A stretch of 64,000 nucleotides of DNA from an uncultured Candidatus Saccharibacteria bacterium (GTDB taxonomy: Bacteria > Patescibacteriota > Minisyncoccia > Phycocordibacterales > Phycocordibacteraceae). The DNA lies in assembly GCA_964434255.1 (NCBI GenBank), contig CAYSUL010000001.1:104856-168855 (forward strand). Direction: 5' to 3'. Position numbers and translations under genes: made by a program. Shown here one piece after another: positions 7,471 to 59,108 of this stretch; position 1 is the stretch's first letter; each line of letters opens with the position of its first letter. Under the pieces are notes generated by a model. The model had not been told where the DNA came from. It ran no database searches and worked only from the letters and a program-made list of their open reading frames with translations.

Positions 7471-8139
7471 TTATTGCGCCGTATCCTGCAGGCGCATGCT
7501 GGTAACTATCTGATCGATATGTGTATCGGGTATCTCCGACTTTCCAGACCGGTCATACCACACGACGACGACCGGATAATCCGGGTTCTTCGTTTCGATG
7601 AAGTTGATGAAGAATACCTGGTCGTCGCATACCTCGAACCCATTGCAGGCAGGAGAGTAGCCGACCTTCACGTACTCAAGACCGTGCTCATTCGTCATCT
7701 TCGCGCAGGAAAGCGGGAGCGGGCCACGCGCGCAGAAATCCTCGATGTCCTTCTCGCTGAACGTGTCCTCATAGCGCCGCTCGCGTGGCAGCGGATGGAG
7801 CGAAAATAGGCGGCTCTCCGCCGAAAAGAACCAGCGCGGTTCGTTCGCGCGCGTCGTCCCGAGGTAGCGGTGCTCGCACCCGTCGCTTGCCGTCAGCAAG
7901 GAGTCGTCGCACTCACCAAGCTCCTGCGCTTCTTCCCTGATTTCGCCCAGCTCCGAGGAATACTCGAAGGCGATCCCCATGGCTGGGCTTGCATAGGTCT
8001 CGGTAGTCGGCACTGCGAGCGGGAACGTACCCCCTTCGCGGCGCACGCCAGCATAGAAGCTCATGCCAGCGATGAGGGTAAAGATGACGATGAAGAGCGC
8101 GATTCGTGCAGGGAGCGATTGTTTGATGTACGCGATCAT
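7471..8139 (-). CDS. Hypothetical membrane-anchored cysteine-rich protein
   Basis: N-terminal TM helix followed by an extracytoplasmic domain with about 8 Cys. No family recognised. Confidence 0.4.
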   Translation of the reverse strand: MIAYIKQSLPARIALFIVIFTLIAGMSFYAGVRREGGTFPLAVPTTETYASPAMGIAFEYSSELGEIREEAQELGECDDSLLTASDGCEHRYLGTTRANEPRWFFSAESRLFSLHPLPRERRYEDTFSEKDIEDFCARGPLPLSCAKMTNEHGLEYVKVGYSPACNGFEVCDDQVFFINFIETKNPDYPVVVVWYDRSGKSEIPDTHIDQIVTSMRLQDTAQ

Positions 8140-8150
8140 AGGCCAAGTGA

Positions 8151-8915
8151 TTATGCGGCAAGCCAGCCGCCGTCCACATAGAATGTCGCGCCGGTCACGT
8201 AGCTCGCTTCATCCGAAGCGAGGAACACTACCATCGGGGCGACCTCGTCGGACGTACCGATCCGGCGCAGCGGCACATGCTGGGCAAGGAACGCATCCAT
8301 GTCTTCCTTGGAGAGACGACGGGCCCGGCTCATGTCCGTATCGATAGCTCCTGGTGCGACTGCATTAACGTTGATACCGAGCGGTGCCCACTCGGCTGCG
8401 AGGCTTTCGGTCATTGCGATGATGCCGCCCTTGGTCGCGGCGTAGTGCGCGCCGCCCACGAGCCCGACGCCCACCTGCCCGGATGCGACGGAGGCGATAT
8501 TGATGATCCTTCCTGACCCCTGCTTCGCCATTTCCTTCGCCGCACGTTGGGCGCACAGGAACTCGCCCCTGAGATTAACGCGCATGGTTTGCTCCCATTC
8601 CTCTTCCGTTATATCGAGTGCGGGCGTGGGGCGATATACACCTGCGTTATTCACGAGAATATCGAGCTTTCCCCAGGTTTCGACGGTCTTCGTGATGACT
8701 TCGTCGATCTGAGCCTTGTTAGCCACATCCATCGCAAAGCACAGCGCTTCTCCGCCTGCCGCAGTTATCTCGCCCGCGACCAGCGCGCAGCCATCGACTC
8801 CTACGTCGGTGACCACCACCCTGGCCCCCTGAGAAGCGAGCGCGAGCGCATGGGCACGCCCCATGCCTCGCTGAGCGCCCGTTACGAGTGCGACCTTACC
8901 GGTGAGATCAAACAT
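8151..8915 (-). CDS. SDR family oxidoreductase (FabG-like 3-oxoacyl-ACP reductase fold)
   Basis: TGAQRGMGRA Rossmann motif, NNAG and the S...YxxxK catalytic triad (YAATKGG). Start chosen at MFDLTGK. Confidence 0.8.
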   Translation of the reverse strand: MFDLTGKVALVTGAQRGMGRAHALALASQGARVVVTDVGVDGCALVAGEITAAGGEALCFAMDVANKAQIDEVITKTVETWGKLDILVNNAGVYRPTPALDITEEEWEQTMRVNLRGEFLCAQRAAKEMAKQGSGRIINIASVASGQVGVGLVGGAHYAATKGGIIAMTESLAAEWAPLGINVNAVAPGAIDTDMSRARRLSKEDMDAFLAQHVPLRRIGTSDEVAPMVVFLASDEASYVTGATFYVDGGWLAA

Positions 8916-8994
8916 ATGTAGAGTGTAGCACCGCCTCCTATGGACCAATACGGGATATGGCTCGAAAGGGCCGCGGCCCGGGTAGTGTAGACTC

Positions 8995-9459
8995 TTGTAT
9001 ATGACCCAGGATCAAACAGGACGCGCCCGTTCGTTCCTATTGAAGAATACGACCGGGGTGCTCGCCACCGCCACACAAGGAGGAGGTGTGCGTGCTCGCA
9101 CCGTTCACTACGCCGCCAACGATGCCTTCGAGCTCTATTTCCTTACGCTCGCCGGTACGCGCAAGGTCGAGGATATCGCTGCGAATCCCCGGGCGGCCTT
9201 CGTGGTCTCGGATCCACAGGCTCCGTGGACGCTTCAGATTGAAGGCACCCTATCCGAGCAGCCTGACACGACCATTATCGACCCCATGGTCCAGAAGCTC
9301 ATGGACACCCTTATGGAGAAGGGCGACGCCTTTGCCCCGCTCACGCATCTTGATCCGAATAAGATCCTCTTCTACAAACTCACTCCTACCTGGATACGCC
9401 TCGGTGAGTTCGCTAGGGGCGAAGGTACGAAAGAGGTATTCTCGATGATCACTCCGTAG
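8995..9459 (+). CDS. Pyridoxamine 5'-phosphate oxidase-like (general stress protein 26 type) FMN-binding protein
   Basis: PNPOx split-barrel pattern (GVLATA...RTVHYA...LYFLT). Confidence 0.55.
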   Translation: MYMTQDQTGRARSFLLKNTTGVLATATQGGGVRARTVHYAANDAFELYFLTLAGTRKVEDIAANPRAAFVVSDPQAPWTLQIEGTLSEQPDTTIIDPMVQKLMDTLMEKGDAFAPLTHLDPNKILFYKLTPTWIRLGEFARGEGTKEVFSMITP

Positions 9460-9901
9460 GCGTCTTCTCGAACTCCCAAGGGCGCTCCTCCTCCCCTACC
9501 TTATGGAGGAACATGGACCGTGCGGTCTTCACGGCGAAATAGAACGCGAGCACGAGGAGCACGACCTCGACCTCGCGTACGAGAAGAAGCTGGAACGAGT
9601 CCCGCGCGTGATAGGTAATTGCCGTTGCCTCGACGAGAAGGGCCCCCACGCCTGCCGCCACTGCGTTGAGCACCATGACGACCTTGCTGTGGGGGTTGGT
9701 GAGGCCGGCTAAGAGCACGAGGATAAGGCCGCCGGCTATCTGAGTGAAAAGGCCGAACGGGAGCAAATCGCCCCATATCGGGAGCGCGACAAACGAGACC
9801 ACGGCGGCAGCAAGGAAGCAGAAGCGGACGTAGTCGCCGTAGTAATGCCGTATGCCGGGTTTTGGTTCGGTCATTTTATAGTCGGAGTAACCATCAGTCA
9901 T
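9449..9901 (-). CDS. Hypothetical integral membrane protein
   Basis: 4 predicted TM helices. No recognisable family. Confidence 0.4.
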   Translation of the reverse strand: MTDGYSDYKMTEPKPGIRHYYGDYVRFCFLAAAVVSFVALPIWGDLLPFGLFTQIAGGLILVLLAGLTNPHSKVVMVLNAVAAGVGALLVEATAITYHARDSFQLLLVREVEVVLLVLAFYFAVKTARSMFLHKVGEEERPWEFEKTPTE

Positions 9902-9911
9902 ACGTAGAATA

Positions 9912-10424
9912 TTATTTCTTCTTGCGCGCTGCCTGCGCTTTTTTAATGTTCGCCTTTTGCGCCCTCTTCATCGCGGGTGTCGGCTTCGCCTTTTCGGGGA
10001 CGTTCTTCACCGGATGCGCGTGGAATATGTCGCCTTTCACCTGCGTAATCTTCCCACTTATCGCCTTAGAAAGAGCGGCTCGCTCTTTCGCATTATCTAT
10101 AACCAGCTGACCACCGGGGGTAACGTGGGCATGCTTCTTGTCTATGAGCCAGGTGGCGGTATCCCAGCTTCCGCTCGAACGTCTTCCGGCGATGCGCTCC
10201 AATCCGCCCTTCTTTCCAACGTCTTGCGTCCGGAAGGAGGTGAACTGCCCCTTAGGCCGCACTTCTACGCGATAGAATTTTCCCTCTCCGCCGGTGCCCG
10301 GCTTCTTGCGTCCCCTCCCCTGCGGCTGGGCGAGCGTGCGCTGCCGCGGGCTCATGCTCTTCCACTTCGCTGACGCTTTCTTGACGTTCTTCTTTGCTGC
10401 CGAAACCTGTTTTTTTGTAGCCAT
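9912..10424 (-). CDS. Lysine-rich basic hypothetical protein (possible nucleic-acid-binding)
   Basis: K/A/R-rich N- and C-termini (AAKKNVKKASAK..., ...KKAQAARKKK) flank a globular core. Confidence 0.4.
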   Translation of the reverse strand: MATKKQVSAAKKNVKKASAKWKSMSPRQRTLAQPQGRGRKKPGTGGEGKFYRVEVRPKGQFTSFRTQDVGKKGGLERIAGRRSSGSWDTATWLIDKKHAHVTPGGQLVIDNAKERAALSKAISGKITQVKGDIFHAHPVKNVPEKAKPTPAMKRAQKANIKKAQAARKKK

Positions 10425-10559
10425 ACGACTAAAGATTAGGAGCTGACAGTTGCGTTGTTAGTACTGGACAAGCGAGCCTTCCAAAAAACTATAGTGGAGT
10501 TGATAGGATAGAGCCACTCGGTGGGGCTTTATTTTCAGCTTCTCCATCTTATAAATATA

Positions 10560-10581
10560 CCCCCTTATTAGGGGGCTTTTA
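10560..10581 (-). terminator. Hairpin CCCCC-TTATTA-GGGGG with U-rich flank; probable terminator for the peptidase gene
   Basis: 5-bp G/C stem with a 6-nt loop, 20 nt downstream of the 10601 stop, followed by T/A-rich sequence on both strands. Confidence 0.35.
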
Positions 10582-10600
10582 TCGCGGAGTCGGATATTGA

Positions 10601-11215
10601 CTATGAAGCCGGATATATTTCTATATAGCGCTTTTTCCAGGCCTTGGTGAAGGTGTCCACTGAGATGGTCCCGCCACCCTCTCGCTCTGCAGGGTCGTTG
10701 TAATACACTGTTTCTCCCTCGATCCTATTGATAACGACCAGGTGCGGGATAGGATTGCTTGGCTCAAACGTGTAATGCACGGAGGCAATGACCGGTCCCC
10801 GTCCTACCGCTTCCTTAAATTGCGCAAAAGCCTCGGCATTCCCGGCAAGGTCATGACTCTCTCCGGTAAACCCATACGCGCTTGAGACACCTATCAGTCC
10901 CTTATACGTCCAGCCCGCCTCTGAATAGGCTCCCTGCTCAATACCGTCTGCAAGCAATGCATCAACCGAAACGGTACCGGGCTTGTAATACTCCATGATC
11001 ATGCCGAGGCTTGCGATACCGCAACCCACCTTTTGCCACTTAGGAGAGCTGATGTCCGTGAATTGTGAAAAGAATGGGACACTGGTTGGCTGGTACGTCT
11101 CAAGAATCGCCTTTGGGGGAAGCGTGTTTGTCTGCGCAACCGCGGGAGTTGCAGACGTGAATCCAGGCGCACTAAGCAAGAGCAACCCGGTTAGGAGCAA
11201 AGAGAGAAAGGCCAT
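10601..11215 (-). CDS. Secreted papain-like cysteine peptidase, C39-like domain
   Basis: Signal peptide and a catalytic Cys context (KVGCGIASLGMIMEYY) typical of the Peptidase_C39_2 family. Confidence 0.55.
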   Translation of the reverse strand: MAFLSLLLTGLLLLSAPGFTSATPAVAQTNTLPPKAILETYQPTSVPFFSQFTDISSPKWQKVGCGIASLGMIMEYYKPGTVSVDALLADGIEQGAYSEAGWTYKGLIGVSSAYGFTGESHDLAGNAEAFAQFKEAVGRGPVIASVHYTFEPSNPIPHLVVINRIEGETVYYNDPAEREGGGTISVDTFTKAWKKRYIEIYPAS

Positions 11216-11256
11216 AACTCGAACATCCTACTGCCCCTCACCACATCCCGCAATGC

Positions 11257-12183
11257 CTAATCTTCTACGATGATGACGGTTCCTAACTCAGCCCAATCAT
11301 AGAGCTCCTTCGCCTTGTCCGGCGGCAGGTTTACGCATCCGTGGGAATACCTGCCTCCAAAGCTGGAGTGCCAATATGCACCGTGAATGACCGCGCCTTC
11401 ATGAGTGAAGTAGAGATTCCACGGCACACCAGGAAGGTCGTAGTAATCGCTTGGAACGCCAGGGATCGGTCCCTGCATATAACGGCTCGGTGTTTTCTTG
11501 AAAACAGCGAACGTGCCGCGCGGCGTCGGCGTAAGCTCAAGGCCGGTAGAAATCGCCGTTTCCATGAATACGGTATCGCCATCGTATGCAATCAATGTCT
11601 GCTCGCTACGATCCACGACGATACGCTTCGTCGTCGTTGCCGTCTCGTGCTCCCATATCGTCTTATCCCCTTCGTCCAGAACAACGCGCACATAGTCAGC
11701 AGCGACGTACCAGTCGCCCGTAACTCGTTCGGGATACCTGAGCGATTCATCGAATACGACCTTGAACCAGCTTTTTCCATCTCGCTCAACCTTCCCGCTG
11801 ATTTTCAGTACAACATGATTTCGTAGACGCGTAACAACCGGAAAGTCAGTGCCCGGACCCGAGCGCACATGGACGCATTCTCCTTGGAAATGCTCCGCGC
11901 AACTATCAATGACTTCGATATATTCAAAGAGCACGTTCGTTAGCGGCAGTAAGCGTGCGCCCGCTTCTGTCGATGAGTCGATGAGCACTGCTTCTTCGGG
12001 TCGAACGAAAGAAGTCTGCGGCGCTTCCCAATACGCAGCTTCTGGTTCATCTATATACTGCTGCGCTTCTCCAAGTCCGTGCGGAGCTGAGGCATACTTA
12101 TCAAGAAGCAGGTACGTGCCTGCGCCAACCGCGGCGAGTATGAGCGCCCACAGTATCAACGGCCGATGAGCTGATGCCTTCAT
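11257..12183 (-). CDS. L,D-transpeptidase (YkuD domain) with N-terminal SH3-like domain
   Basis: Catalytic motif HGAYWHSSFGGRYSHGCVNL. N-terminal TM/signal segment. Confidence 0.8.
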   Translation of the reverse strand: MKASAHRPLILWALILAAVGAGTYLLLDKYASAPHGLGEAQQYIDEPEAAYWEAPQTSFVRPEEAVLIDSSTEAGARLLPLTNVLFEYIEVIDSCAEHFQGECVHVRSGPGTDFPVVTRLRNHVVLKISGKVERDGKSWFKVVFDESLRYPERVTGDWYVAADYVRVVLDEGDKTIWEHETATTTKRIVVDRSEQTLIAYDGDTVFMETAISTGLELTPTPRGTFAVFKKTPSRYMQGPIPGVPSDYYDLPGVPWNLYFTHEGAVIHGAYWHSSFGGRYSHGCVNLPPDKAKELYDWAELGTVIIVED

Positions 12184-12321
12184 AGGCGCACTATATATGA
12201 TTTAGTTTTCTTAAGGAAACAGTGCGGCAAGGGTGGTGCTGTAATCTGGCACGAATTTGCTGGTCATCTGAGGTGGTATCCGAACTGGTTCCGCTCTCCG
12301 TATACCCGAATATCTACTACG

Positions 12322-13005
12322 CTATTCAGGCTGGAATGGCCTCGGGATCTCCTTGTCCAAGATCTCACGCTGCAGGTACTTCTTCTTGGTGCGTATCGTT
12401 GCGCCCTTCTCCGGCGATCTATCCTTAGCAGCTTCCATACGCTTCAGTTCAAGCCACTCCTCGAGTCTCCGCTTTTCCTTCTGCTGCTTCTCGTACGCTT
12501 CGGTGGTGCGCGCCTGATTCTTTTCCCTCTCGATGAGATAGCTGGCGTAATCGCCCGTATAGGAACTGATCGAGCGAGTCGAAGGATGTATCTCGAGGAT
12601 ACGCGTCACACGCGCAGCATGCATGAGCTTTGAATTCTCCGAAGCTAGAAGTAGCCCTCCACGGAATCCTGCGATGAAGCGTATGATAGCCCCGACATCC
12701 ACGGAATCGCTCAAACCCTGCGCGTCGATGACGAGGAAGGTGGGTCGCGCGTGGAGTATCTGCACGAGCGAGTCCGCGCCTCCCTGGATACCTTCAGGAG
12801 AGATATATGCGAGACGCTCTCCGTCATGGGTGACGGAGCCTCCATCCATCTCGTCTTCATCCGCGATAATACGAAGGAATGTTCCCGTATCGCCTTCCCT
12901 GACACCCAATACGCCCACGCGCTCTCCCGGACGCATAACAAGATTGACCTTCTCGAAGAGAGGTTCGCCGAGCGCATCCACGCGCAAATCCTTAACGACG
13001 ATCAT
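12322..13005 (-). CDS. Degenerate ABC-F-like ATPase half (pseudo-ATPase)
   Basis: ABC fold order with Walker A degenerated (GVLGVREGDTG), no LSGGQ signature and Walker B without the catalytic Glu (FLVIDAQ). An ABC-F-type charged linker follows (EKQQKEKRRLEEWLE). Confidence 0.4.
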   Translation of the reverse strand: MIVVKDLRVDALGEPLFEKVNLVMRPGERVGVLGVREGDTGTFLRIIADEDEMDGGSVTHDGERLAYISPEGIQGGADSLVQILHARPTFLVIDAQGLSDSVDVGAIIRFIAGFRGGLLLASENSKLMHAARVTRILEIHPSTRSISSYTGDYASYLIEREKNQARTTEAYEKQQKEKRRLEEWLELKRMEAAKDRSPEKGATIRTKKKYLQREILDKEIPRPFQPE

Positions 13006-13109
13006 GGAGCCTTACTATAACGTGCTGGGGGTTTGGTACGACGTGGGAACTTTTATTAAATAGAAGAGCCGCCGTTCCCTTTCGGAAACAGGCGGCCCCA
13101 GAGTTCTGT

Positions 13110-13688
13110 TTAGTTGAACATGTTCCAGTAAGCGGAAGGGTTCTTCCAGTCGGGATAGTGTTCTTCCAACCAGTCGTTGATTTTCTTTTGCAGCTCCTTC
13201 AGAGAAGCTTCTCTTGTCTCTTTAGGAATGCGAACTTCGTATTCCCCATACAGACGTTCTCCATAAGGATTTTCGATCCATTGAGAGCGCGTCGTGTAGG
13301 ATTCATCTTCACCCGCACTGAACCCTGTCCACTGGGTGAGAGCGTACTGTAAGCGGAGTACGGGAGGTTTGAATCTCCACCGTTTCAGCCGCCCATCAGC
13401 GTGAGTACCAGGCATGTAATGATTGGGGCGCAGTGCGTCCAGAATCCTACCGCGAAGCTGCTCACGTTCGTCCAGCAGAAGCGGCCGGCCGTTTTCCAGT
13501 AGTATGTGCCAGCCCTTAGGCAAACTCACGGTCTGCCAGCCCTGATGATCACCTGATTGTCCGAACTCGCGCCCGAATGGAGTGATGCCCAAAGTGCGAA
13601 GTATTGTTTCGACATCTTCGTCATCAACCTCGTTCATTACGATTTTGAGTGGAATCTCATTCCAACGATCTTGCGTTCTGGGCATTGC
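13110..13688 (-). CDS. Hypothetical protein
   Basis: ORF with good coding periodicity. Start chosen at MPRTQDRW. No family recognised. Confidence 0.35.
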   Translation of the reverse strand, partial: AMPRTQDRWNEIPLKIVMNEVDDEDVETILRTLGITPFGREFGQSGDHQGWQTVSLPKGWHILLENGRPLLLDEREQLRGRILDALRPNHYMPGTHADGRLKRWRFKPPVLRLQYALTQWTGFSAGEDESYTTRSQWIENPYGERLYGEYEVRIPKETREASLKELQKKINDWLEEHYPDWKNPSAYWNMFN

Positions 13689-13755
13689 CCGCCTCCAGTG
13701 TGAGTGGTTCCTGTTCTGAGTATTAAAATAGCACACTATACATAAAAGTCAATTG

Positions 13756-13826
13756 CTGCGAGACTAGGACTCGAACCTAGATAACATCCTCCAGAGGGAT
13801 GCGTCCTACCATTAGACGATCTCGCA
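13756..13826 (-). tRNA. tRNA-Gln (anticodon CUG)
   Basis: Cloverleaf folded by hand: U1-A72 acceptor (typical bacterial tRNA-Gln), anticodon loop CUCUGGA, T-loop TTCGAGT, discriminator G. Its translation appears as an artefact in the ORF track. Confidence 0.8.
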
Positions 13827-13893
13827 ATGACGAAGCGGCTCACGCCGCCGTCGAGGACACAATACTGGAAAATAGCCCGTTCTTCAACCGTAT

Positions 13894-13929
13894 AAAAAGT
13901 ACTAAGTCCTGGCGGAGCCAGGACTTAGT
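13894..13929 (-). terminator. Rho-independent terminator (12-bp perfect stem ACTAAGTCCTGG/CCAGGACTTAGT + U-tract on minus strand)
   Basis: Hairpin at 13901-13929 with the AAAAAGT tract on the plus strand (a U-run on the minus strand), downstream of the DUF1761 gene. Confidence 0.5.
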
Positions 13930-13994
13930 CCAAGTACTTTATACCGAACACCTCGTACGCGCCAGGGCCGCGAAGACGATATGGGGATAACAAT

Positions 13995-14438
13995 CTATGC
14001 CGGGAACGAGGCCAGGATGGCGCCCATAACGAGCAGGTTCACGAGATAGTAGCCGGAGGTGATGAACCAGTACTTCCAGCTCTTGTTCTCCCAGAGCACG
14101 GGACCGAGCGATACCGGCATGACGAAGCCGAGCCAGCTCCAGAAACCGGCCATGAGCCCTGCGGCGATACCGACTGTCTGCGTATATGCCGAGGAGAATG
14201 CGAGTGCATATGCGAGAACATACGCCATGACGACGCTTCCAAGCGTCATGAGCGCATAGCTCCTGAGCATCGCGCTCTTAGCGGACGGATCGGTCTTTGC
14301 CTTCATCATGTCGTCCGTGGTGAGGCCCACCTCCTTCATCCAGGCTTTCCCGAACAGCGGACCGTACCAGAGCGAGCCGAGTACGACTGCGGTTACGACC
14401 GCTCCCAAGATGGCTAGATAGTTTATTGCTACTTCCAT
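13995..14438 (-). CDS. DUF1761-like integral membrane protein
   Basis: 4 TM helices with a W/Y-rich pattern (LWYGPLFGKAW ... KYWFITSGYYLVN). Confidence 0.5.
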   Translation of the reverse strand: MEVAINYLAILGAVVTAVVLGSLWYGPLFGKAWMKEVGLTTDDMMKAKTDPSAKSAMLRSYALMTLGSVVMAYVLAYALAFSSAYTQTVGIAAGLMAGFWSWLGFVMPVSLGPVLWENKSWKYWFITSGYYLVNLLVMGAILASFPA

Positions 14439-14562
14439 ACGGAAATAATTAATGGATACACAAAAAGTATAGCGCCGCCTAAACCCATTGACTTCATCCT
14501 ATATACAGGTTAGAATGCTACTATCTCGTTCGGGCAATCACGCCACCAAAGGGAGAGAGTGC

Positions 14563-14994
14563 ATGAGTTTTAAATTGGTTCTTAAGGGCGCGTATAGCCA
14601 GGTGACTTATGAATTTCTCCTGGCCGCAGGTATCCGTATGGAGCCGTTCGAAGCGGCCCAGAGGGTATCGCTCGGAGATGAGCGCCTATGGGAACTGTCC
14701 AGGTGCGTTCCTCGCTTCCTGGTTGAGGGCAATCTTCAGGACCCCGACGAGTTGTGCGTCGTGCTTGATGTCGAGGAGGATTCGTTGGAGTCGCTCGATC
14801 ATCTCTATGAGAAGCCGGTTCCGCATCTGCGGCTCCACGTCGAACGCAACAAATGCGTCATTCGACGTGAGGACGCCGCTCCTCCCGGCGGGAAAATCGT
14901 TCGCGTGAGGGACTTGGCTTTCTGGCCGCGTGCTCCAAAAGAGAACGATGAGCTCCGGGCATTCTTTTCGCCAGCACAACAGCAAGCGGCATAA
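14563..14994 (+). CDS. Hypothetical protein
   Basis: ATG at 14563 is preceded by GGGAGAGAG (an RBS). No family recognised. Confidence 0.35.
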   Translation: MSFKLVLKGAYSQVTYEFLLAAGIRMEPFEAAQRVSLGDERLWELSRCVPRFLVEGNLQDPDELCVVLDVEEDSLESLDHLYEKPVPHLRLHVERNKCVIRREDAAPPGGKIVRVRDLAFWPRAPKENDELRAFFSPAQQQAA

Positions 14995-15025
14995 ACAGAT
15001 CTTTCGGCGCAAGTACGCCAACTAG

Positions 15026-15055
15026 GCTTCCCTTCGGGGAGGCCATTCTTTTTAT
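15026..15055 (+). terminator. Rho-independent terminator (GGCTTCCC-TTCG-GGGAGGCC + T-run)
   Basis: 8-bp stem with a TTCG tetraloop followed by ATTCTTTTTATATTT, after the 14994 stop. Confidence 0.45.
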
Positions 15056-15067
15056 ATTTACGATGTC

Positions 15068-16720
15068 TTATCCCCTAAAGTCCGCACGCTTCTGCGCCGC
15101 CTCGAGGAACTTCGTGAAAAGTGGGTGCGGCGTGAGTGGACGCGCCTGAAGCTCCGGATGGAACTGGCAGCCCAGATAGAACGGATGTTCGGTCTTAGGA
15201 AGTTCCGCTATCTCCATGAGCACGCCGTCAGGTGACTTCCCCGAGAATACGAGACCCTTCTGGGTAAGCCGCTCGATGTATTCCGGATTTATCTCGTACC
15301 GATGGCGATGGCGCTCTTCTACGACGTCAGCTCCGTATGCTTCCTGCGCAATAGTGCCCTTCGTGAGGTGCGCGGGATACGAACCGAGGCGCATAGTGCC
15401 GCCATACTTCCCCTCGGCGATAAGCGCCTTCTGGTCCGGCATCACGTCGACGACCGGGTGCGCAGCATTCGGGTCTATCTCCACCGTGTGCGCTCCCTCG
15501 AGCCCGAGCACATTGCGTGCGTACTCGATAACGAGCATATGCATGCCATAGCAGAGGCCGAAATACGGGATACGGTGCGTCCTCGTATATTCCGCCGCCT
15601 TTATCTTCCCTTCTATCCCGGTCTCGCCGAACCCGCCCGGTACGATGACGCCGTCATACTGCTCAAGCTTCTCAGCATCTTCCTTCGTTTCTATATCCTT
15701 GGCGTTCACCCATTCGATGATGGCCTTAACGCCGACTGCAGCAGCCGAGAACTTGAGCGCCTCGATGACGGAAAGATAGGCGTCTGAGAGCACGAAATCG
15801 CCCGTATCAAAGTACTTCCCGACGATACCTATCTTCACCGTCGGTTTCTCCACCTTCGTCCTGTCCACAAACTCCTTCCAGTCCGAGAAATCGGCAGCCT
15901 TGTCCTTCGGGAGCGAAAGCGCATCGAGGAGCAAGTCGCCGAGATTATCCTTCTCGAAGTTGAGCGGCACGTCATAGATGCTCGCGACGTCAGGTGCCGA
16001 GATGATGTGGTCAGGGCGCACGTTGCACCAGATGGCGAGCTTCTCCTTCCGCTTCTCGTCCATCGTGTTGTTGCTGCGCGCAAGGATGAAATCCGGCTGC
16101 ACTCCATACGAGTTAAGTTCGCGGACGGCCGATTGAGTGGGCTTGGTCTTCATCTCCCCTATCGTATTAGGCACCGGCAAGTATGAAACGAGCACGAAAC
16201 GCACGTCGTCGGGCTTCTTGAGACGCATCACGCGTGCCGCTTCGATGAAGAGCGCATTCTGGAAGTCGCCCACCGTCCCGCCTATCTCTATAACGGAGAT
16301 GCGGCTGCCGTTGTGTGCAGCCGCCGTTTCCAGGCGCTCGATGATTTCATCACGGACGTGCGGGATAGCCTCGACGAACTTGCCCTTGTAGCCGAGCGCG
16401 CGCTCGCGGTTGATGACCGACTGGTACACCATACCGCTCGTCATGTAGTCCTCAGGACCCAGATCGCGTCCGAGGAAGCGCTCGTAGTTGCCCATGTCCT
16501 GGTCGGTCTCGAGCCCGCTCTTGAGCACGAACACCTCGCCGTGCTCGGTCGGGTTCATGGTGCCCGCGTCCACATTGAGGTACGGGTCTATCTTCACGAG
16601 ATTCACGTCGTACCCGCGCTCCTTGAGAATGAGCCCCATTGAGGAGGTGGCGATGCCCTTGCCCACGCCGCTCATCACGCCGCCCAGAACGAATATGTAC
16701 TTATGACCTTCCTTCGCCAT
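15068..16720 (-). CDS. pyrG: CTP synthase
   Basis: N-terminal synthetase domain (YIFVLGGVMSGVGKG) and C-terminal glutamine amidotransferase (GLCYGMH...HPE). Length 550 aa. Confidence 0.92.
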   Translation of the reverse strand: MAKEGHKYIFVLGGVMSGVGKGIATSSMGLILKERGYDVNLVKIDPYLNVDAGTMNPTEHGEVFVLKSGLETDQDMGNYERFLGRDLGPEDYMTSGMVYQSVINRERALGYKGKFVEAIPHVRDEIIERLETAAAHNGSRISVIEIGGTVGDFQNALFIEAARVMRLKKPDDVRFVLVSYLPVPNTIGEMKTKPTQSAVRELNSYGVQPDFILARSNNTMDEKRKEKLAIWCNVRPDHIISAPDVASIYDVPLNFEKDNLGDLLLDALSLPKDKAADFSDWKEFVDRTKVEKPTVKIGIVGKYFDTGDFVLSDAYLSVIEALKFSAAAVGVKAIIEWVNAKDIETKEDAEKLEQYDGVIVPGGFGETGIEGKIKAAEYTRTHRIPYFGLCYGMHMLVIEYARNVLGLEGAHTVEIDPNAAHPVVDVMPDQKALIAEGKYGGTMRLGSYPAHLTKGTIAQEAYGADVVEERHRHRYEINPEYIERLTQKGLVFSGKSPDGVLMEIAELPKTEHPFYLGCQFHPELQARPLTPHPLFTKFLEAAQKRADFRG

Positions 16721-16722
16721 AC

Positions 16723-17637
16723 CTAGACCTTCAGATACCTACGCACCGCGAGCCACGAAGCGAGCGCCCCTATCAAGATGCCGGAGCCCACGAGTATGCC
16801 GAACACCATCGCGAAGTTCGAGACGTAGTAGTCGAAGAGGTTGAATCCGCCGAGCCAGCTTGAGAGCGCGCTCCCGGCGTACCACGTCGCAGGATAGAAC
16901 AGGAGGAGCGCTATGACAGCAGCCATGATTCCCGAGAGGATACCGGCCACGATAAATGGACCCCGGATGTACATATTCGATGCTCCCACGAGCCGCATGA
17001 CCGCAATCTCGTCGCGTGCGCTGTATATCGCGAGGCGGATGGTCGCAAGTGCGATGATGACTGAAGCGCCGGCGAACAAGATGACAACGAAGAGACCTGC
17101 CTTCTCCATAGTCTCTATGGCGCCCGTAAGGCGGTCGATGACCGACTTGTTCTGGTAGTAGTTGATACGATCGACGATGTCGGTACCGCTCGGGTCGTCA
17201 GCGAGATGGTTCACGATGGACTCGTACTGGCTCGGATCCTTCGCCTTTATAGCAAGCGATGCCCCGAGCGGGTTCTCACCGAGCTCCTCAAGCGCCTGAA
17301 GCGTGAGCTGGTCGTTCGCATGGCGGGTCTTGAATTCCTCGAGCGCCGCGTCGCGTGACGTATAGGTGACGGTCGCTACTTCTGGCAACTCCTCCAGCGA
17401 GTCCTGGATGGCAAGGATGTCTCCTTCGGCTGCGTCGACGGTGAAGTACACGTTCACGTCCACCTTGTCCTGCACGAGCGCGAGCGTGTGGGTGAGGAGC
17501 GCGGAAAGGAAGATGAGGAAGCCGACGATGACAAGCGTCACCGTCATGATGAGCACGGTCGCGAACGATACGGCCCCGCTCCGGGCGAAGTTCTTCGCGC
17601 CGCTCGATGCTATCCGTTTAAGTGAGGTCCAAAGCAT
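16723..17637 (-). CDS. ftsX: Cell division ABC transporter permease FtsX
   Basis: 4-TM FtsX topology with a large extracytoplasmic loop. Immediately downstream of ftsE. Confidence 0.85.
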   Translation of the reverse strand: MLWTSLKRIASSGAKNFARSGAVSFATVLIMTVTLVIVGFLIFLSALLTHTLALVQDKVDVNVYFTVDAAEGDILAIQDSLEELPEVATVTYTSRDAALEEFKTRHANDQLTLQALEELGENPLGASLAIKAKDPSQYESIVNHLADDPSGTDIVDRINYYQNKSVIDRLTGAIETMEKAGLFVVILFAGASVIIALATIRLAIYSARDEIAVMRLVGASNMYIRGPFIVAGILSGIMAAVIALLLFYPATWYAGSALSSWLGGFNLFDYYVSNFAMVFGILVGSGILIGALASWLAVRRYLKV

Positions 17638-17642
17638 AAAAT

Positions 17643-18326
17643 CTATAGTACGTACTGACCCTGCAGGTCATCGCGGATAATCCGTCCCTTGTCCATCGTC
17701 ACCACACGCTTGCCGAGGGAGTCCACGACGCCCTTATTATGCGTCGTGATGAGCACCGTGGTGCCCACGAGTTCGTTGATCTTCTTGAGGATATCCATGA
17801 TCTCGAACGTGTTCATCGGGTCGAGGTTGCCCGTCGGCTCGTCGGCCACGATGACGTCCGGCTGATTGATGATGGCGCGACCGATAGCGACGCGCTGCTG
17901 CTCCCCGCCTGAGAGCTGGTGCGGGAAGTGCCATGCCTTGTCCGTCAGGTCGACGAGGCCGAGGATGTGCGGAACGTCGGAGTCTATCTCCTCCTGAGGC
18001 CGGCCTGCCGCTTCCATTGCGAACGCGATGTTCTCATACGCGGTCTTATGCGGGATGAGTCGGAAGTCCTGGAACACCATGCCTATCTTCCGGCGATAGT
18101 GGTGAAGCGCGCTGCGCGGTACGGCATGCACATCGATGTCTTCGAAGAAGACCGAGCCCTCGGTAGGCCGATCCTCAGCAAGCAGCATACGGAGGAGCGT
18201 GGTCTTCCCTGCTCCTGAGTGACCGACGATGGAGACGAATTCCTTAGGCGCTATCTTGAGGGTCACCGCATCGAGCCCGGAAGTCCCGTCGCGATGTATT
18301 TTGGTGACCCGGTCGAAATAGATCAT
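17643..18326 (-). CDS. ftsE: Cell division ATP-binding protein FtsE
   Basis: Walker A GHSGAGKTT, LSGGEQQRVAIGRA signature and Walker B VIVADEPTGNLD. Confidence 0.9.
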   Translation of the reverse strand: MIYFDRVTKIHRDGTSGLDAVTLKIAPKEFVSIVGHSGAGKTTLLRMLLAEDRPTEGSVFFEDIDVHAVPRSALHHYRRKIGMVFQDFRLIPHKTAYENIAFAMEAAGRPQEEIDSDVPHILGLVDLTDKAWHFPHQLSGGEQQRVAIGRAIINQPDVIVADEPTGNLDPMNTFEIMDILKKINELVGTTVLITTHNKGVVDSLGKRVVTMDKGRIIRDDLQGQYVL

Positions 18327-18346
18327 AGGTTAAACAACGGAAAGCA

Positions 18347-19216
18347 TTATACCCCACCCTCGCGGGAAGCGTCTATAAAATCATCCAGGTCACCCGCAAG
18401 GACGGCGTCCGGATTACCGGATTCGTGCCCCGTCTCGTGGTCCTTCACCATCTTATACGGATGCAGGACGTAGGAACGCATCTGGGAGCCCCATTCGTTG
18501 GCAGTGGACGGCGCTATGGAGCGGCCTTTCGCCTCGGCTTCGCGGCGTTCCTCCTCCATACGGAACAGCTTCGCTTGGATGAACTCGAGCGCCTTCTCCC
18601 GGTTGGCGAGCTGGCTCCGCTCGCTCGACACATGGACCGATACGCCGCTCGGGGTGTGGGTAATACGCACCGCGGTCTCCCGCTTATTCACGTTCTGGCC
18701 GCCAGCTCCCCCTGACTTCGCGAACTGGATATCGAGGTCGTCCGACCGGAGCTCCACCTTGTGCTGTGCATCGAGCTTCGGGAGCACCTCGACCAGCGCG
18801 AATGAGGTCTGGCGCTTGTCGTTGGCGTTAAACGGCGAGATACGCACGAGACGATGTACGCCCGCTTCGTTCTTCAGCCTCCCGTATACCCCCTTCCCCG
18901 TTATTTCAAGGAGAAGGTTGCGGAACCCGCCATGATTGTTCTCGTTCGCATGGAGTTCGAGCACGCTCCATCCTTTCGACTTCGCGTATCCCTCGTACAT
19001 ACGGCGGAGCATGGCAGCGAAGTCCTCCGCATCATCGCCACCCGCGCCTGCGAGTATCGCGAGGGTCGCGCTCCCGCCGTCGAGCGAGTCTCCATCCCCT
19101 CCCTCCTTGAGTGATTGGTATTCAGCGACACGGCGCTGCGCTTCGTCTTTATCCGCCCAGAAGTCAGGACTCGCCATGAGCGCCTCTATCTCCTTCATCC
19201 GCTCCTCGGGATTCAT
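18347..19216 (-). CDS. prfB: Peptide chain release factor 2 (short domain-1 form, no programmed frameshift)
   Basis: SPF tripeptide (RISPFNAN) and GGQ (SGGAGGQNVN). 289 aa with domain 1 about 55 aa shorter than E. coli RF2. No upstream CUU-UGA frameshift cassette is present. Confidence 0.85.
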   Translation of the reverse strand: MNPEERMKEIEALMASPDFWADKDEAQRRVAEYQSLKEGGDGDSLDGGSATLAILAGAGGDDAEDFAAMLRRMYEGYAKSKGWSVLELHANENNHGGFRNLLLEITGKGVYGRLKNEAGVHRLVRISPFNANDKRQTSFALVEVLPKLDAQHKVELRSDDLDIQFAKSGGAGGQNVNKRETAVRITHTPSGVSVHVSSERSQLANREKALEFIQAKLFRMEEERREAEAKGRSIAPSTANEWGSQMRSYVLHPYKMVKDHETGHESGNPDAVLAGDLDDFIDASREGGV

Positions 19217-19548
19217 TGAGGGAGTATAGCAAAGCGGCGCCCGAGGGCGCCGCAGTCGCTAATTGAGACCGGCGGAGCGCTGGAGACGGATGAGCCCGCC
19301 AACTACGCACTCCTCTGGATCGAATGGTTCTGCCAACACGAGGTAATACGGATGGGAATCGCCACTGATCCAATATCGCGTGTCTGCCGGAGACGGAGTA
19401 GTGAGAAGTTTTGTAAAAGCCGGTTCGGTCGTGCAGTCGCGGAAGACCATTGCCCCGCTCGCATCCACGAATTCGAGGGAGACTCGCATGGGGAAACCTC
19501 TCTGCATGCTGTTGCGGGTTACACCTGCAATAAGGATAGCACCTGCTT

Positions 19549-19624
19549 TGGAGCCGAAGGGGAGATTCGAACTCCCGACATTTCGCTTACGATGCGAACG
19601 CTCTACCAACTGAGCTACTTCGGC
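19549..19624 (-). tRNA. tRNA-Thr (anticodon CGU)
   Basis: 76-nt cloverleaf with anticodon loop AUCGUAA and an encoded CCA end. The ORF-track artefact EVAQLVERS is its translation. Confidence 0.85.
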
Positions 19625-19641
19625 GAAGTGTAGGGAATATA

Positions 19642-20112
19642 TCATAATCCCGAATTCTTGCGAGAGCGTTTTCTATAAAGAAGGCCTGCCTCCTTCGCAC
19701 GATTACTGATAGCTCGGTTGGGCCTACCCTTACCTTTGTTTAAGGCAGCAAACGTGGTGGTAAGTGCATCACAATTCGGACAGAGAAGCCGTAGGTTCCC
19801 TTCAGAATTATTCCTCCAATTACCATCAATATGATCCGCCACGAGCGGCGCCTCTCCTGTTTTTGGGTTCTTTTCCGACCATCCGCACACACAGCATTTA
19901 TTTTCGAACTTCTCACGTAAATACCTTTTGACTGTCTTGTTGACCAAGCCAATACTAGTCAGTCCAGCTACTTCCCCAGATTTCCATCGCTTTATAAATA
20001 TCCTGTTTTGATATACGAACTGACACTTATTGCTGCAATATTTATAAGTGGAACGCGGAGTTTCTCCGCCACAAGCGAGACAGGGCGTCCTCGGCTTCTT
20101 CGGGTTCGGCAT
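19642..20112 (-). CDS. HNH endonuclease (low-GC, probably horizontally acquired)
   Basis: HNH motif (ADHIDGNWRNNSEGNLRLLCPNC) with N-terminal CxxC...C zinc-ribbon-like cysteines. Local GC about 45% versus about 60% background. Directly adjacent to tRNA-Thr. Confidence 0.7.
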   Translation of the reverse strand: MPNPKKPRTPCLACGGETPRSTYKYCSNKCQFVYQNRIFIKRWKSGEVAGLTSIGLVNKTVKRYLREKFENKCCVCGWSEKNPKTGEAPLVADHIDGNWRNNSEGNLRLLCPNCDALTTTFAALNKGKGRPNRAISNRAKEAGLLYRKRSRKNSGL

Positions 20113-20153
20113 ACCCCACCTCTATACCAGATAGAGATAATGAAAATATGAAA

Positions 20154-20750
20154 TTACGCGTGCTTCTTCCAGTAGAACAGGCCGATAAGCGTACCGATGA
20201 TGCTTCCGATGAGATTCACGACGAGATCGATCGCGGTGTTGTAGTAGCCGCCAACATCGGTGTCCGGGATGGTGAGCTTCGCTATGAACTCGATTATCTC
20301 GTTCGCGGCGCCGATGCCCATCGCACCGAATATGGTCAGGAGCGCGAGACCGATGGGGTGGAACTTCCCGTCGCGGGCGAGGAAGAAATAGACGGCGAGT
20401 GCCGCGATGATGGAGCCATACGTATGAACTATCTGATCGAACTTGATGAACGTGAGCCCGGTCGGATTATCGAGCGGCATGACCACATAGTTATAGAGGA
20501 CGTCATTCGCCACCTGTATGCCGCCACCGAGTATATGGAGGAGCATCTGGAGCGAGAGCATCCAGAGGAGCCAATCGGGCAGGCACGTCCATTTGAGCGT
20601 GCAGGCGACGAGCGCCAATATGAGGGCAACCGCAGCGATATATCCCAAGAACTCCGTGTTCCCTACCGATATGAAATAGAACACCGCAATGACGATGTAT
20701 GCGAGCGTGAATAGGCCGAGCGCTATCCGGGAGGGGGTGATGATATTCAT
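20154..20750 (-). CDS. Hypothetical integral membrane protein
   Basis: 5-6 TM helices. No confident family. Confidence 0.4.
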   Translation of the reverse strand: MNIITPSRIALGLFTLAYIVIAVFYFISVGNTEFLGYIAAVALILALVACTLKWTCLPDWLLWMLSLQMLLHILGGGIQVANDVLYNYVVMPLDNPTGLTFIKFDQIVHTYGSIIAALAVYFFLARDGKFHPIGLALLTIFGAMGIGAANEIIEFIAKLTIPDTDVGGYYNTAIDLVVNLIGSIIGTLIGLFYWKKHA

Positions 20751-20814
20751 GCTCTTGCTGTTGAGTCTCCGTAGCTAATACTACTGACCATGAAGAATAG
20801 TTGAATTCGAGTTG

Positions 20815-20886
20815 AGCCGATGGGCAGAATTGAACTGCCGACCTACTCCTTACCATGGAGTTGCTCTACCCCTGAGCTACATCGGC
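20815..20886 (-). tRNA. tRNA-Thr (anticodon GGU)
   Basis: Cloverleaf with anticodon loop AUGGUAA and T-loop TTCAATT. Confidence 0.85.
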
Positions 20887-21711: not shown

Positions 21712-21760
21712 TAGTTTCTTGCAAACACAAAACCGCCCACATGGACGGTTTTGTGAAGTG

Positions 21761-22042
21761 CGCGGTCGACCGGACTTGAACCGGCAACCTTCCGCGTGCA
21801 TGCTACCCCCCTACTTTCGTAGGGGCATGGACTATATCTTCACCATAGGTTTCCCCGTAGGTGCTCCGGTATCTAGTCTCTACGGCGCCCCCCTCCGAGT
21901 GAGGGGGTTCCCTCGGTATTCGCATATCCTGGTAGACCAGGACTTAGCATTCACCGATATCCCAGAGAGTTTCAACTTGACTTTCGAACAAGAAGCTGCC
22001 TAATCGACAGGCGGATGCTCTAACCAGTTGAGCTACGACCGC
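21761..22042 (-). tRNA. tRNA-Asp (anticodon GUC) interrupted by a 208-nt group I intron in the anticodon loop
   Basis: Exon 1 (22042-22007) is GCGGTCGTAGCTCAACTGGTTAGAGCATCCGCCUGU. Exon 2 (21798-21761) is CACGCGGAAGGTTGCCGGTTCAAGTCCGGTCGACCGCG. The spliced product folds as tRNA-Asp with loop CUGUCAC and discriminator G73. Confidence 0.6.
21799..22006 (-). ncRNA. Group I self-splicing intron (ORF-less, compact) within tRNA-Asp
   Basis: Contains group I core elements in the correct order: R-like GTAGAGACTAGA, a P4-like CGGGGAAACC and the S element AAGATATAGTCC. P1 can form between exon CUGU|C and intron GGCAG with a U-G pair at the splice site. The intron ends in G before the 3' exon. Confidence 0.55.
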
Positions 22043-22120
22043 ACTATGCTGAATATCAATCCCTTAACCGACTAACGCGCACGAGTCGAATATAGCCTGG
22101 AATCAGACTATAGACAACTC

Positions 22121-22197
22121 TGGTGCCGACGGCAGGGAACGATCCTGCGACCTTAGCTTTATGAGTGCTACGCTCTAACCAACTGAGCTACGTCGGC
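22121..22197 (-). tRNA. tRNA with CAU anticodon (elongator Met or Ile2/lysidine type), atypical A54/U58 T-loop
   Basis: Cloverleaf with acceptor GCCGACG/CGTCGGC, anticodon loop CUCAUAA and T-arm GCAGG-ATCGTTC-CCTGC. CCA is encoded. No initiator features (G1-C72). Confidence 0.7.
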
Positions 22198-22876
22198 AAT
22201 TCTCGATTTGAGCAATGCGCTCTATATAGGCCAATATCTTGTCTCTAATATCTGTACCCTTTGAGACACGCAATGCCAGAACACCATAATACACATCGCG
22301 GTTCTCGTAAATCTTTTTCCCTCTATCTAGGAAGGTGGTGCGTCGGAATTGACTAATCGGAATATCGAGAGCCTTGCTCCAAAACCGTAGAATGTCTGTC
22401 TCGCGGTCGCGATGCGTGTCGCTTATGAATATCCGTGGCATGAAACGAGACTTCTCCACCTCGAGACATTCCATGAACCAACGACTCATGAGTTGAATGA
22501 CCCGTGGGTCTGAATTTATCAGAGCGAGCGACCCAGAGTTCGATTTAACGCCCTCTCCCCAGTACAAGCCTATCCCGATTAGGAACAGCTCCCTATCCGT
22601 AAGATCAGGCAGAATGTTGATAGCTTCTTCCTGCGCGACTTTCAGACGATTCGATCGCTTCATTCTATTCATCTCAGCCCCAATCATCCGTCCGCGATGG
22701 CCTGCCACTATCTGTTTCGCATGAAGTACCTCCTTTTGCTCCGGTGTTAACTCGATATCTCGAAGCCACAAACTGACCGTGCTGGGAGCGATTTTTATCG
22801 CCCGGCCTATTTCCTTAACGCTCATCCCTTTCCGCCTCAGTTCGATAGCCCTTCGTTTCTCCTCTGGTTTAGCCAT
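22175..22876 (-). CDS. HTH domain protein with LAGLIDADG-like (GLYWGEG) motif; putative free-standing homing endonuclease (paralog of 59121..59795)
   Basis: N-terminal HTH (MSVKEIGRAIKIAPSTVSLWL) followed by FLIGIGLYWGEGVKS, resembling the LAGLIDADG block (cf. GLWIGDG). Low local GC. Its 3' end overlaps the first 23 nt of the downstream tRNA. Confidence 0.45.
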   Translation of the reverse strand: MAKPEEKRRAIELRRKGMSVKEIGRAIKIAPSTVSLWLRDIELTPEQKEVLHAKQIVAGHRGRMIGAEMNRMKRSNRLKVAQEEAINILPDLTDRELFLIGIGLYWGEGVKSNSGSLALINSDPRVIQLMSRWFMECLEVEKSRFMPRIFISDTHRDRETDILRFWSKALDIPISQFRRTTFLDRGKKIYENRDVYYGVLALRVSKGTDIRDKILAYIERIAQIENCRRSSVG

Positions 22877-23031
22877 ATGTATCGCTATCATTTTCCTGCA
22901 GGCCTCATCATCATTTCCTGGAATTTATATAAAGGAAATCTGGAATAGTAATCGTCTCGCTATGCCCACCACACCTCTTTCCTTCGTCCCATTCGCGAAG
23001 CTCCCTGTTACAATCCACTCAACATAGCCGC

Positions 23032-23700
23032 ATGAGAGTTCTTGTCGTCGAAGATGAGCAGCAGATCGCAGACTTCCTCAAGGAATCCTTCGAGGCGGAG
23101 TATTTCGTAGTCGATGTCGCGAGCGATGGCGAGCGTGGTTCCTATTACGCCCGCACGAACGACTACGACCTCATCGTGCTCGATAACATGCTGCCGAAGA
23201 AGGAGGGTGCGCAGGTGTGCCGAGAGGTCCGCGCAGCCGGCCGCCTCATGCCCATACTCATCGTATCGGTCCGGAGCCATACGCTGGATAAGGTGGAGCT
23301 GCTCGATGCCGGCGCGGACGACTATCTCGCCAAGCCCTTCGCACTTGAGGAGCTTATGGCCCGCTCGCGCGCATTGCTCCGCCGGCCGCAACCGCTCGAG
23401 GGAGATATCCTCCAGATAGAGGACATCGTACTCGATACGAGGTCAGGCATCGTCCGCAAGGGAGAAAGCGACATCCGCCTTACGCGCAAAGAATACATGC
23501 TCCTGCGCTATCTCATGAAGAATCCCGGTATCGTACTTTCGCGCGGCATGATACTCGAGCATGTATGGGACATGGAAGTCGATATCTTCTCCAACACCAT
23601 CGAGTCCCATATCCTCTCGCTTCGGAAGAAGATGGGAAACCGGGGGCGGGATAGCCTTATCCAGACCATTTCCGGAAGAGGCTATCGCATGGGCACCTAA
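23032..23700 (+). CDS. OmpR-family two-component response regulator
   Basis: Receiver domain (VLVVEDE...D...LDNMLP) and a winged-helix output domain. Confidence 0.85.
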   Translation: MRVLVVEDEQQIADFLKESFEAEYFVVDVASDGERGSYYARTNDYDLIVLDNMLPKKEGAQVCREVRAAGRLMPILIVSVRSHTLDKVELLDAGADDYLAKPFALEELMARSRALLRRPQPLEGDILQIEDIVLDTRSGIVRKGESDIRLTRKEYMLLRYLMKNPGIVLSRGMILEHVWDMEVDIFSNTIESHILSLRKKMGNRGRDSLIQTISGRGYRMGT

Positions 23701-34827: not shown

Positions 34828-34835
34828 GCTTCTTG

Positions 34836-34906
34836 TTGCGGGGGCCGGAATCGAACCGGCGTCTGGAGGTTATGAGCCTCCCGAGGTACCTCTCCTCTAC
34901 CCCGCT
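34836..34906 (-). tRNA. Initiator tRNA-fMet (anticodon CAU)
   Basis: 1:72 mismatch (A1 with A72), A11:U24 in the D-stem and anticodon loop CUCAUAA. The T-arm and acceptor 3' strand are nearly identical to E. coli tRNA-fMet (GGTTCGATTCCGGCCCCCGCAA). Only two G-C pairs at the base of the anticodon stem. Confidence 0.7.
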
Positions 34907-59001: not shown

Positions 59002-59034
59002 CTCAGGCGCTCGCGCCTGAGTCGTTTCCTTTTG
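59002..59034 (+). terminator. Rho-independent terminator (CTCAGGCG-CTCG-CGCCTGAG + TCGTTTCCTTTT)
   Basis: 8-bp G/C stem with a tetraloop and T-rich tail. Confidence 0.5.
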
Positions 59035-59108
59035 TGCGCCCGGCAGGGCACGATCCTGCGACCCCCCGGATATAAGCCGGGTGCTCTGACCAACTGAGCT
59101 ACGGGCGC
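59035..59108 (-). tRNA. tRNA-Ile (anticodon UAU), atypical A54/U58 T-loop
   Basis: Acceptor GCGCCCG/CGGGCGC, anticodon stem CCCGG/CCGGG with loop CUUAUAU. The D-arm and T-arm (GCAGG-ATCGTGC-CCTGC) are nearly identical to the CAU tRNA at 22121..22197. Confidence 0.65.

Follow-up and report, generated by a model that had tools for sequence, protein, structure and literature searches.

A gene for tRNA-Asp(GUC) on the minus strand of the 64,000-nucleotide stretch of DNA analysed here (the window) is interrupted between tRNA positions 35 and 36, and very probably it is a working gene whose 208-nt intervening sequence is a group I ribozyme without a homing-endonuclease gene. This reading draws on the anatomy of the gene, on a match to the covariance model of group I introns, on covariation within a large family, and on homology to published members of that family. 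The host tRNA, the insertion site, the host phylum and the self-splicing of this type of element have all been published before, and what the window contains is an ordinary orthologue of an element that is very widespread; it raises no question past those that the literature itself asks, such as why reduced genomes retain these introns and whether their splicing is regulatory. Its chief value is for annotation, as the gene is overlooked both by default ARAGORN and by Rfam at the gathering threshold. Since default tools miss such a split gene, a genome that carries it would be scored as one without tRNA-Asp, and could be marked incomplete.

The gene runs from 22042 to 21761 and consists of a 36-nt 5′ exon, the intron and a 38-nt 3′ exon (Table 1). 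In full, the 3′ exon reads CACGCGGAAGGUUGCCGGUUCAAGUCCGGUCGACCGCG, with the termini CACGCGGAAGG...CGACCGCG (also given as CACGCGGA...CGACCGCG) and the discriminator G73 at its end; on direct reading, CCA is not encoded at this end. When the two exons are joined in silico, ARAGORN returns tRNA-Asp(gtc) with a normal cloverleaf, an anticodon loop CUGUCAC, and an acceptor stem of which all the positions are paired, with G3-C70 among them. The first-pass annotation of this DNA had put the two tRNA halves 208 nt apart and had derived the same loop from them, and both its coordinates and its spacing are right. As for coding content of the intron, the sole listed ORF is one of 94 aa on the plus strand (21719-22003), which we take as spurious, antisense as it is to the tRNA and the intron.

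How is this gene transcribed? From spacing and strand, tRNA(CAU) and tRNA-Asp are probably co-transcribed: a two-tRNA transcript is likely because the tRNA(CAU) gene precedes tRNA-Asp by 78 nt on its strand and a U-tailed hairpin follows the 3′ exon. A simple terminator scan did not call this hairpin, and two weak Rfam matches to terminator stems, RNAI and Leu_leader, coincide with it. These two were dismissed together with other weak Rfam matches (Plastid-ycf2, CRISPR repeat and mir-5984), all of which fall on the terminator hairpin or on the antisense strands of tRNAs. Two terminator-like hits at 22012-21996 are the P1 hairpin of the intron and no terminators.

Table 1. Features of the split tRNA-Asp(GUC) locus, in 5′ to 3′ order along the minus strand
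Feature	Position in the window	Strand	Basis
tRNA(CAU) gene, 78 nt upstream of tRNA-Asp	22197-22121	minus	ARAGORN; Rfam tRNA, 64.2 bits
tRNA-Asp(GUC) 5′ exon, tRNA positions 1-35, GCGGUCGUAGCUCAACUGGUUAGAGCAUCCGCCUGU, last base U35	22042-22007	minus	direct reading
P1: exon CUGU and intron C1 paired with internal guide GGCAG; U35-G wobble at the 5′ splice site	22010-21996	minus	direct reading
Group I intron, 208 nt, between tRNA positions 35 and 36, CGAUUAGGCAG to GUAGCAUG	22006-21799	minus	RF00028 match
P2 hairpin, GAAA tetraloop	21992-21976	minus	92% paired; both-side changes in 4 of 4 outer pairs
P3 5′ strand, CUCUGG	21967-21962	minus	partner at 21869-21864; also in minimum-free-energy fold
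P4-P5-P5a domain	21957-21913	minus	covariation; minimum-free-energy fold (P5a)
P6-P6a hairpin	21912-21884	minus	P6 97%, P6a 82-83% paired, many pair types; in minimum-free-energy fold
J6/7 and P7 5′ strand, GUAGAGACUAGA	21883-21872	minus	invariant in 45 diverse sequences; aligns to Rfam core consensus AGACUA
P3 3′ strand, CCGGAG	21869-21864	minus	covariation counts
P8 hairpin, tip CGGGGAAACC at 21857-21848	21863-21841	minus	covariation
J8/7 and P7 3′ strand, AAGAUAUAGUCC	21840-21829	minus	identical to Rfam consensus GAUAUAGUC
P9 hairpin, GAAA tetraloop	21825-21808	minus	91-93% paired; both-side changes in 6 of 7 pairs
Terminal G (omega G), adjoining the 3′ splice site	21799	minus	direct reading
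tRNA-Asp(GUC) 3′ exon, tRNA positions 36-73	21798-21761	minus	direct reading; ARAGORN on joined exons
Terminator-like hairpin AAAACCGUCC...GGGCGGUUUU, U-rich tail, just 3′ of tRNA-Asp	21752-21723	minus	direct reading

The group I model of Rfam, RF00028 (Intron_gpI), matches 22024-21808 on the minus strand over its full length (model positions 1-253) with 44.9 bits. The E-value is 3.4e-10 in a search of 651 nt and 3.4e-8 when both strands of the 64-kb window are compared with the full set of 4227 Rfam families, and there is one such match in the whole window. Although the score stays below the curated gathering cut-off of 50 bits, the E-value is far from chance, and by this measure the covariance-model search that the first-pass annotation had proposed as a check came out significant. 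An Rfam search at the gathering threshold reports no intron at the locus, and default ARAGORN reports no tRNA-Asp there; both misses come from thresholds and from the handling of introns, not from absence of the element. It is to be noted that cut-offs applied to bacterial tRNA introns in the literature are lower, 18-20 bits or E < 1e-4, and that the Rfam seed of group I introns is said there to hold no bacterial sequence at all. In its intron mode, ARAGORN does give a tRNA-Asp(gtc) at 22042-21760, with a 194-nt intron at position 39; we rejected this solution, which makes a tRNA of 89 nt and ignores the rule that the 5′ exon ends in U and the intron in G. The exons had also been proposed as a test under alternative splice points, and here 35/36 gives a valid tRNA-Asp, while boundaries at 33/34 and at position 39 were rejected.

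How common is such an arrangement? One genome per species was scanned with a pattern made of the J8/7-P7 block, a gap of 12-42 nt, G, CAC and the T-arm signature. The scan yielded at least 120 stretches, and at least 109 distinct species loci passed a strict test, in which a complementary anticodon-stem half followed by YUGU had to be found upstream and ARAGORN had to return tRNA-Asp(gtc) after splicing at 35/36. Introns of these loci are 194-274 nt long with a median of 215 nt. U35 and the terminal G are demanded by the scan pattern and the exon filter, so that their presence in all the loci (the terminal G in 110 of 110 homologues) is by construction, and invariance of J8/7 and the 3′ strand of P7 among the loci is likewise by design, this element being a part of the pattern. 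Six further stretches among those listed look alike and are either cut by the ends of their loci or narrowly outside the filter. Five others (L007, L037, L052, L079 and L097, from Gemmatimonadota and unclassified MAGs) are chance matches within a conserved coding gene and are readily told apart.

Nearly all the listed loci belong to Patescibacteria, including Paceibacterota, Saccharibacteria, Kaiser-, Zambryski-, Yanofsky-, Nomura- and Daviesbacteria and others, which agrees with the expectation of the first-pass annotation that the host would be of an intron-rich lineage with small genomes. The split tRNA-Asp, listed for three complete genomes in the published table, is hereby extended to at least 109 species representatives and is a common trait of Patescibacteria. 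The same split gene is seen also in three MAGs titled Pseudomonadota, Gammaproteobacteria and Azotimanducaceae (L024, L056 and L063); these may be mis-binned contigs of Patescibacteria or may represent a genuine occurrence outside the phylum. Among the matches listed, introns closest to that of the window are found in L042 (83%), L062, L023, L103, L017 and L039, in the range of 77-83%, and the window exons are identical to those of the Paceibacterota loci L023 and L039.

The window sequence and the 109 loci were aligned with MAFFT (110 sequences). Among 45 diverse members, 89.0% of the cells are paired, versus 34.9-43.0% in controls in which the partners were slid by 1-3 columns; changes on both sides are found in 42 of 60 pairs, a covariation score of 0.388 compares with 0.166 in shuffles, and none of 500 shuffles attains any of the five observed measures. 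Counts per helix over all 110 sequences agree with this result. The structure was taken from the window sequence and is therefore somewhat favoured over the slid controls; despite this bias, so large a difference and so many compensatory pairs decide the matter for the helices.

The conserved catalytic core, P3 to P9, is present in the window intron in canonical order with the P3/P7 pseudoknot, so that the compact, ORF-less group I intron that had been read into the anticodon loop is borne out by the full-model match and by homologues with compensatory changes. P1 is paired in 100% of the 110 sequences, and its fifth pair covaries (AU 96, CG 9, GC 4, GU 1). The U-G pair at the 5′ splice site and the G before the 3′ exon, both of which had been pointed out, are found as U35-G in P1 and as the G at 21799. 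P3 is 95% paired with both-side changes in 5 of 6 pairs. P4 pairs UCGGUG (21957-21952) with UACCGA (21918-21913); it is 95% paired, with UA in 55 and AU in 49 sequences at the first pair. In the 110-sequence alignment, P5 is 96% paired, and P5a is 79% paired with heavy covariation. P7, formed by GACUA (21878-21874) and UAGUC (21834-21830), is 100% paired and is uninformative by covariation because it never varies and its 3′ strand is fixed by the scan pattern. The outer four pairs of P8 are 98-99% paired, with both-side changes in three of the four, and the P9 loop is GAAA in 104 of the 110 sequences. Folded by itself to its minimum free energy (-74.5 kcal/mol, z = -2.3 versus shuffles), the intron forms P3, P4, P5, P5a, P6, P6a, P8 and P9. 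Reading by eye for a P10 pairing of the 3′ exon with the guide region gave no convincing one; P10 is dispensable in many group I introns.

All three core motifs quoted by the first-pass annotation, GUAGAGACUAGA, AAGAUAUAGUCC and CGGGGAAACC, are present at the positions in Table 1, but the last had been labelled P4-like, and this assignment has to be changed. It is the tip of P8, because it follows the 3′ strand of P3 and precedes J8/7, and the true P4 is the UCGGUG/UACCGA helix described above.

What surrounds the gene? Housekeeping and flanking genes of the window show 68-75% DNA identity to Paceibacterota contigs, in a comparison set that is biased to carriers of the intron, and in L042 a response-regulator gene lies within about 1.4 kb of tRNA-Asp, as in the window. 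A FtsE protein identical to that of the window occurs on contigs from 0.1-µm-filtered Hainich groundwater (well H51), and a Logan assembly with the identical FtsE is 99.99% identical to window positions 7643-20869. From the nearest loci and this sample source, the host is probably a groundwater bacterium of the Paceibacteria/Parcubacteria type within Patescibacteria. Two contigs about 97% identical to the window, L001 and L002, share the terminator hairpin with it; their divergence begins precisely where tRNA-Asp has its 3′ end (window 21764), and they rejoin the window at 23007-23092. Between the shared flanks, the window (21765-23006, 1.24 kb) has tRNA(CAU), the split tRNA-Asp and an ORF with a helix-turn-helix, and L001 (87-4479, 4.4 kb) has a LAGLIDADG_3 gene, ClpB and a glyoxalase. 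The difference between L001 and the window is either a strain-level swap of a cassette at the end of a tRNA gene or an assembly join. The ORF in question (22175-22891, minus strand, 238 aa) directly precedes the tRNA pair and extends with its last codons into the tRNA(CAU) gene. It was considered as a homing endonuclease and rejected: the one domain that Pfam finds in it is an N-terminal helix-turn-helix (HTH_23, E 8e-7), blastp shows no relation to the LAGLIDADG_3 protein of L001 (E 2.3), and nothing indicates a function for the intron.

Several other genes for the translation apparatus were met in the window. It has two tRNA(CAU) genes, at 22121-22197 and 34835-34906, and ARAGORN finds a tRNA-Ile with the anticodon UAU at 59034-59108 on the minus strand; tRNA-Ile(UAU) is uncommon in bacteria, most of which read AUA by a lysidine-modified CAU tRNA. 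The called product of a release-factor gene (18347-19216, minus strand), with PCRF and RF-1 domains, has only 289 aa and is thus a short one among class I release factors; in related contigs a separate 76-aa gene is called just upstream of this gene. A tmRNA gene at 63293-63702 on the plus strand (102.7 bits) has an unusually long predicted tag peptide, ANKTVASVKSPYFGKESFAFAYA.

To which subgroup does the intron belong? In the scheme of Michel and Westhof, the hallmark of IA introns is the presence of extra hairpins, P7.1 and P7.2, between P7 and P3/P8. The window intron does not have this feature: GACUA, GAUA, CCGGAG and P8 run on directly, with just four bases from P7 to the 3′ strand of P3 and with P8 right behind it, which leaves P7.1/P7.2 no room. 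In size and layout it resembles the small IC3 introns of tRNA genes, from which it differs in its J8/7. By subgroup models, 25 of the 28 published introns at 35/36 were classed as IA, and no tRNA intron of Patescibacteria fell in IC (PMC13011429). Among at least 110 tRNA-Asp introns found here, 104 are of the window type, and five (L027, L061, L068, L078 and L114) are a second lineage with a GGUUCAGAGACUA core, tRNA-Asn-like and with extra hairpins after P7; the insert between P7 and P3/P8 is seen in L027, L068 and L114. Thus, two intron lineages occupy one site of tRNA-Asp in different Patescibacteria. One might go further and suppose that the window type is a distinct minimal class of about 200 nt, filed under IA though it is without the IA peripheral hairpins and inherited vertically in Paceibacteria and Saccharibacteria, that the Asn-like lineage took the same site in a few genomes, and that a cassette of tRNA-Met and tRNA-Asp is present or absent between 97%-identical strains, so that repeated invasion or replacement at one site was accompanied by movement of the cassette. 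Such a history, if true, would exceed what the published survey of complete genomes describes; as a whole we regard it as improbable.

Could the element instead be a decaying relic that no longer splices, leaving a tRNA pseudogene beside another tRNA-Asp gene elsewhere in the genome? With only 64 kb of the genome in view, a second, intron-less gene is possible elsewhere; the Rfam score is under the gathering cut-off; and replacement of the tRNA segment by other genes in the 97%-identical L001 and L002 means that the locus is not fixed among strains. A dead intron is nevertheless very improbable, because all the core helices are intact, all the core positions that are invariant in the family are kept in the window copy, and the exons match those of two other Paceibacterota species.

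Splicing at 33/34, with tRNA-Ala(UGC) as the product, has hardly any claim to belief, even though the window can be read as CU|...|UGCAC and ARAGORN or tFind give just this call for two of three published cases of tRNA-Asp. It fails because the intron would then end in A (...GUAGCA), not in G, and because the acceptor stem has G3-C70 and no G3-U70, the pair that defines alanine identity. G73, G10 and C38 also fit tRNA-Asp, and in a relative the product formed in vitro was sequenced with its junction at 35/36. That no real intron exists, and that a chance match or an assembly chimera missing the curated Rfam threshold deceived us, is next to inconceivable against the E-value for the whole window, the same arrangement with compensatory changes in at least 109 other species, an independent assembly (L005, 97.8% identical) in which this 3′ exon recurs together with the 3′ half of the intron, and the ease with which the five true chance matches to the scan pattern are distinguished.

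If the gene is a working one split by a self-splicing intron, the following course can be drawn. One transcript would probably cover the upstream tRNA(CAU) as well and run to the hairpin that follows the 3′ exon. The intron would fold into P1 to P9, in which CUGU and the first intron base pair with GGCAG to place U35 opposite G, and free guanosine held in P7 would attack after U35. The terminal G would then take the place of guanosine in the P7 pocket, and the freed 3′-OH of U35 would attack before C36, so that the exons are joined with the loop CUGUCAC and the intron is released. Judging by the Azoarcus intron and other small tRNA introns, docking of the GAAA loops on P2 and P9 into helix receptors is probable as well. 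We infer this guanosine-dependent, two-step self-splicing, and splicing in the cell with it, from the family and from an assay on a relative 63% identical to the window intron.

In a preprint, Williams (2020; 10.1101/2020.01.27.920355) brought the bacterial tRNA types known to be split by introns to 21, where there had been 4 before, and metagenomic genomes of unnamed phyla come second in the frequency of split tRNA genes, behind Cyanobacteria. Nakagawa et al. (mSystems 2026; PMC13011429) described Patescibacteria whose tRNA-Asp and tRNA-Asn genes are split by group I introns at 35/36, and the first-pass annotation is thus outdated in regarding tRNA-Asp as an unusual host. Their 4,934 complete genomes contained 28 introns at 35/36, of which 19 are in Patescibacteria and most have no endonuclease genes; they noted that tRNAscan-SE, ARAGORN and tFind overlook these introns or call them wrongly, one such call being Ala(UGC) at 33/34 (PMC13011429). 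One tRNA-Asp and one tRNA-Asn intron spliced themselves precisely in vitro, the tRNA-Asp precursor of GCA_001029755.1 exactly at 35/36, and a change of the terminal G to C abolished the second step (PMC13011429).

The window genome lies outside this published set of complete genomes (PMC13011429). With the published tRNA-Asp introns at 35/36, the window intron has in common the host tRNA, the site, U35, the terminal G, the core blocks and the lack of an endonuclease gene, and both they and it are missed by default tools. Over aligned positions, with sequences from the supplementary table of PMC13011429, it is 81% identical to the Paceibacteria tRNA-Asp intron of GCA_023898525.1 and 63-66% identical to the Microgenomatia tRNA-Asp introns of GCA_001029755.1 (63%) and GCA_030583725.1. 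P8 is short in the window intron (23 nt) and long in that of GCA_023898525.1. The first intron base is C in the window where the published ones have A, with a compensating G in the guide, and 9 of the 110 sequences are alike in this respect. A Paceibacteria tRNA-Asn intron (GCA_030583765.1, 73%) and a Doudnabacteria tRNA-Tyr(GUA) intron (72%) contain the window core almost verbatim and lie at the same site after U35. Introns of tRNA-Asn(GUU) have another host tRNA, and many of them are of the second lineage, with the GGUUCAGAGACUA core and extra hairpins after P7; some published ones carry HNH endonuclease genes, which the window intron does not.

The four classical types of split bacterial tRNA genes all have IC3 introns, at 34/35 in Leu, at 36/37 in Arg and Ile2, and at 33/34 in fMet (10.1101/2020.01.27.920355). 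Such IC3 introns, in tRNA-Ile(CAU) of Azoarcus, tRNA-Arg(CCU) of Agrobacterium, cyanobacterial tRNA-Leu(UAA) and tRNA-fMet, are likewise self-splicing, ORF-less inserts of the anticodon loop with a length of about 200-250 nt, whereas their insertion sites are 33/34, 34/35 and 36/37 and that of the window intron is 35/36. We take the two to have a common layout as well, with P2 but no P2.1, a simple P5, GAAA on P2 and P9, and the GUAGAGACUAGA block, the Azoarcus intron being our reference here, while the J8/7-P7 element AAGAUAUAGUCC of the window is presumably unlike the version in the IC3 introns of Azoarcus and Anabaena.
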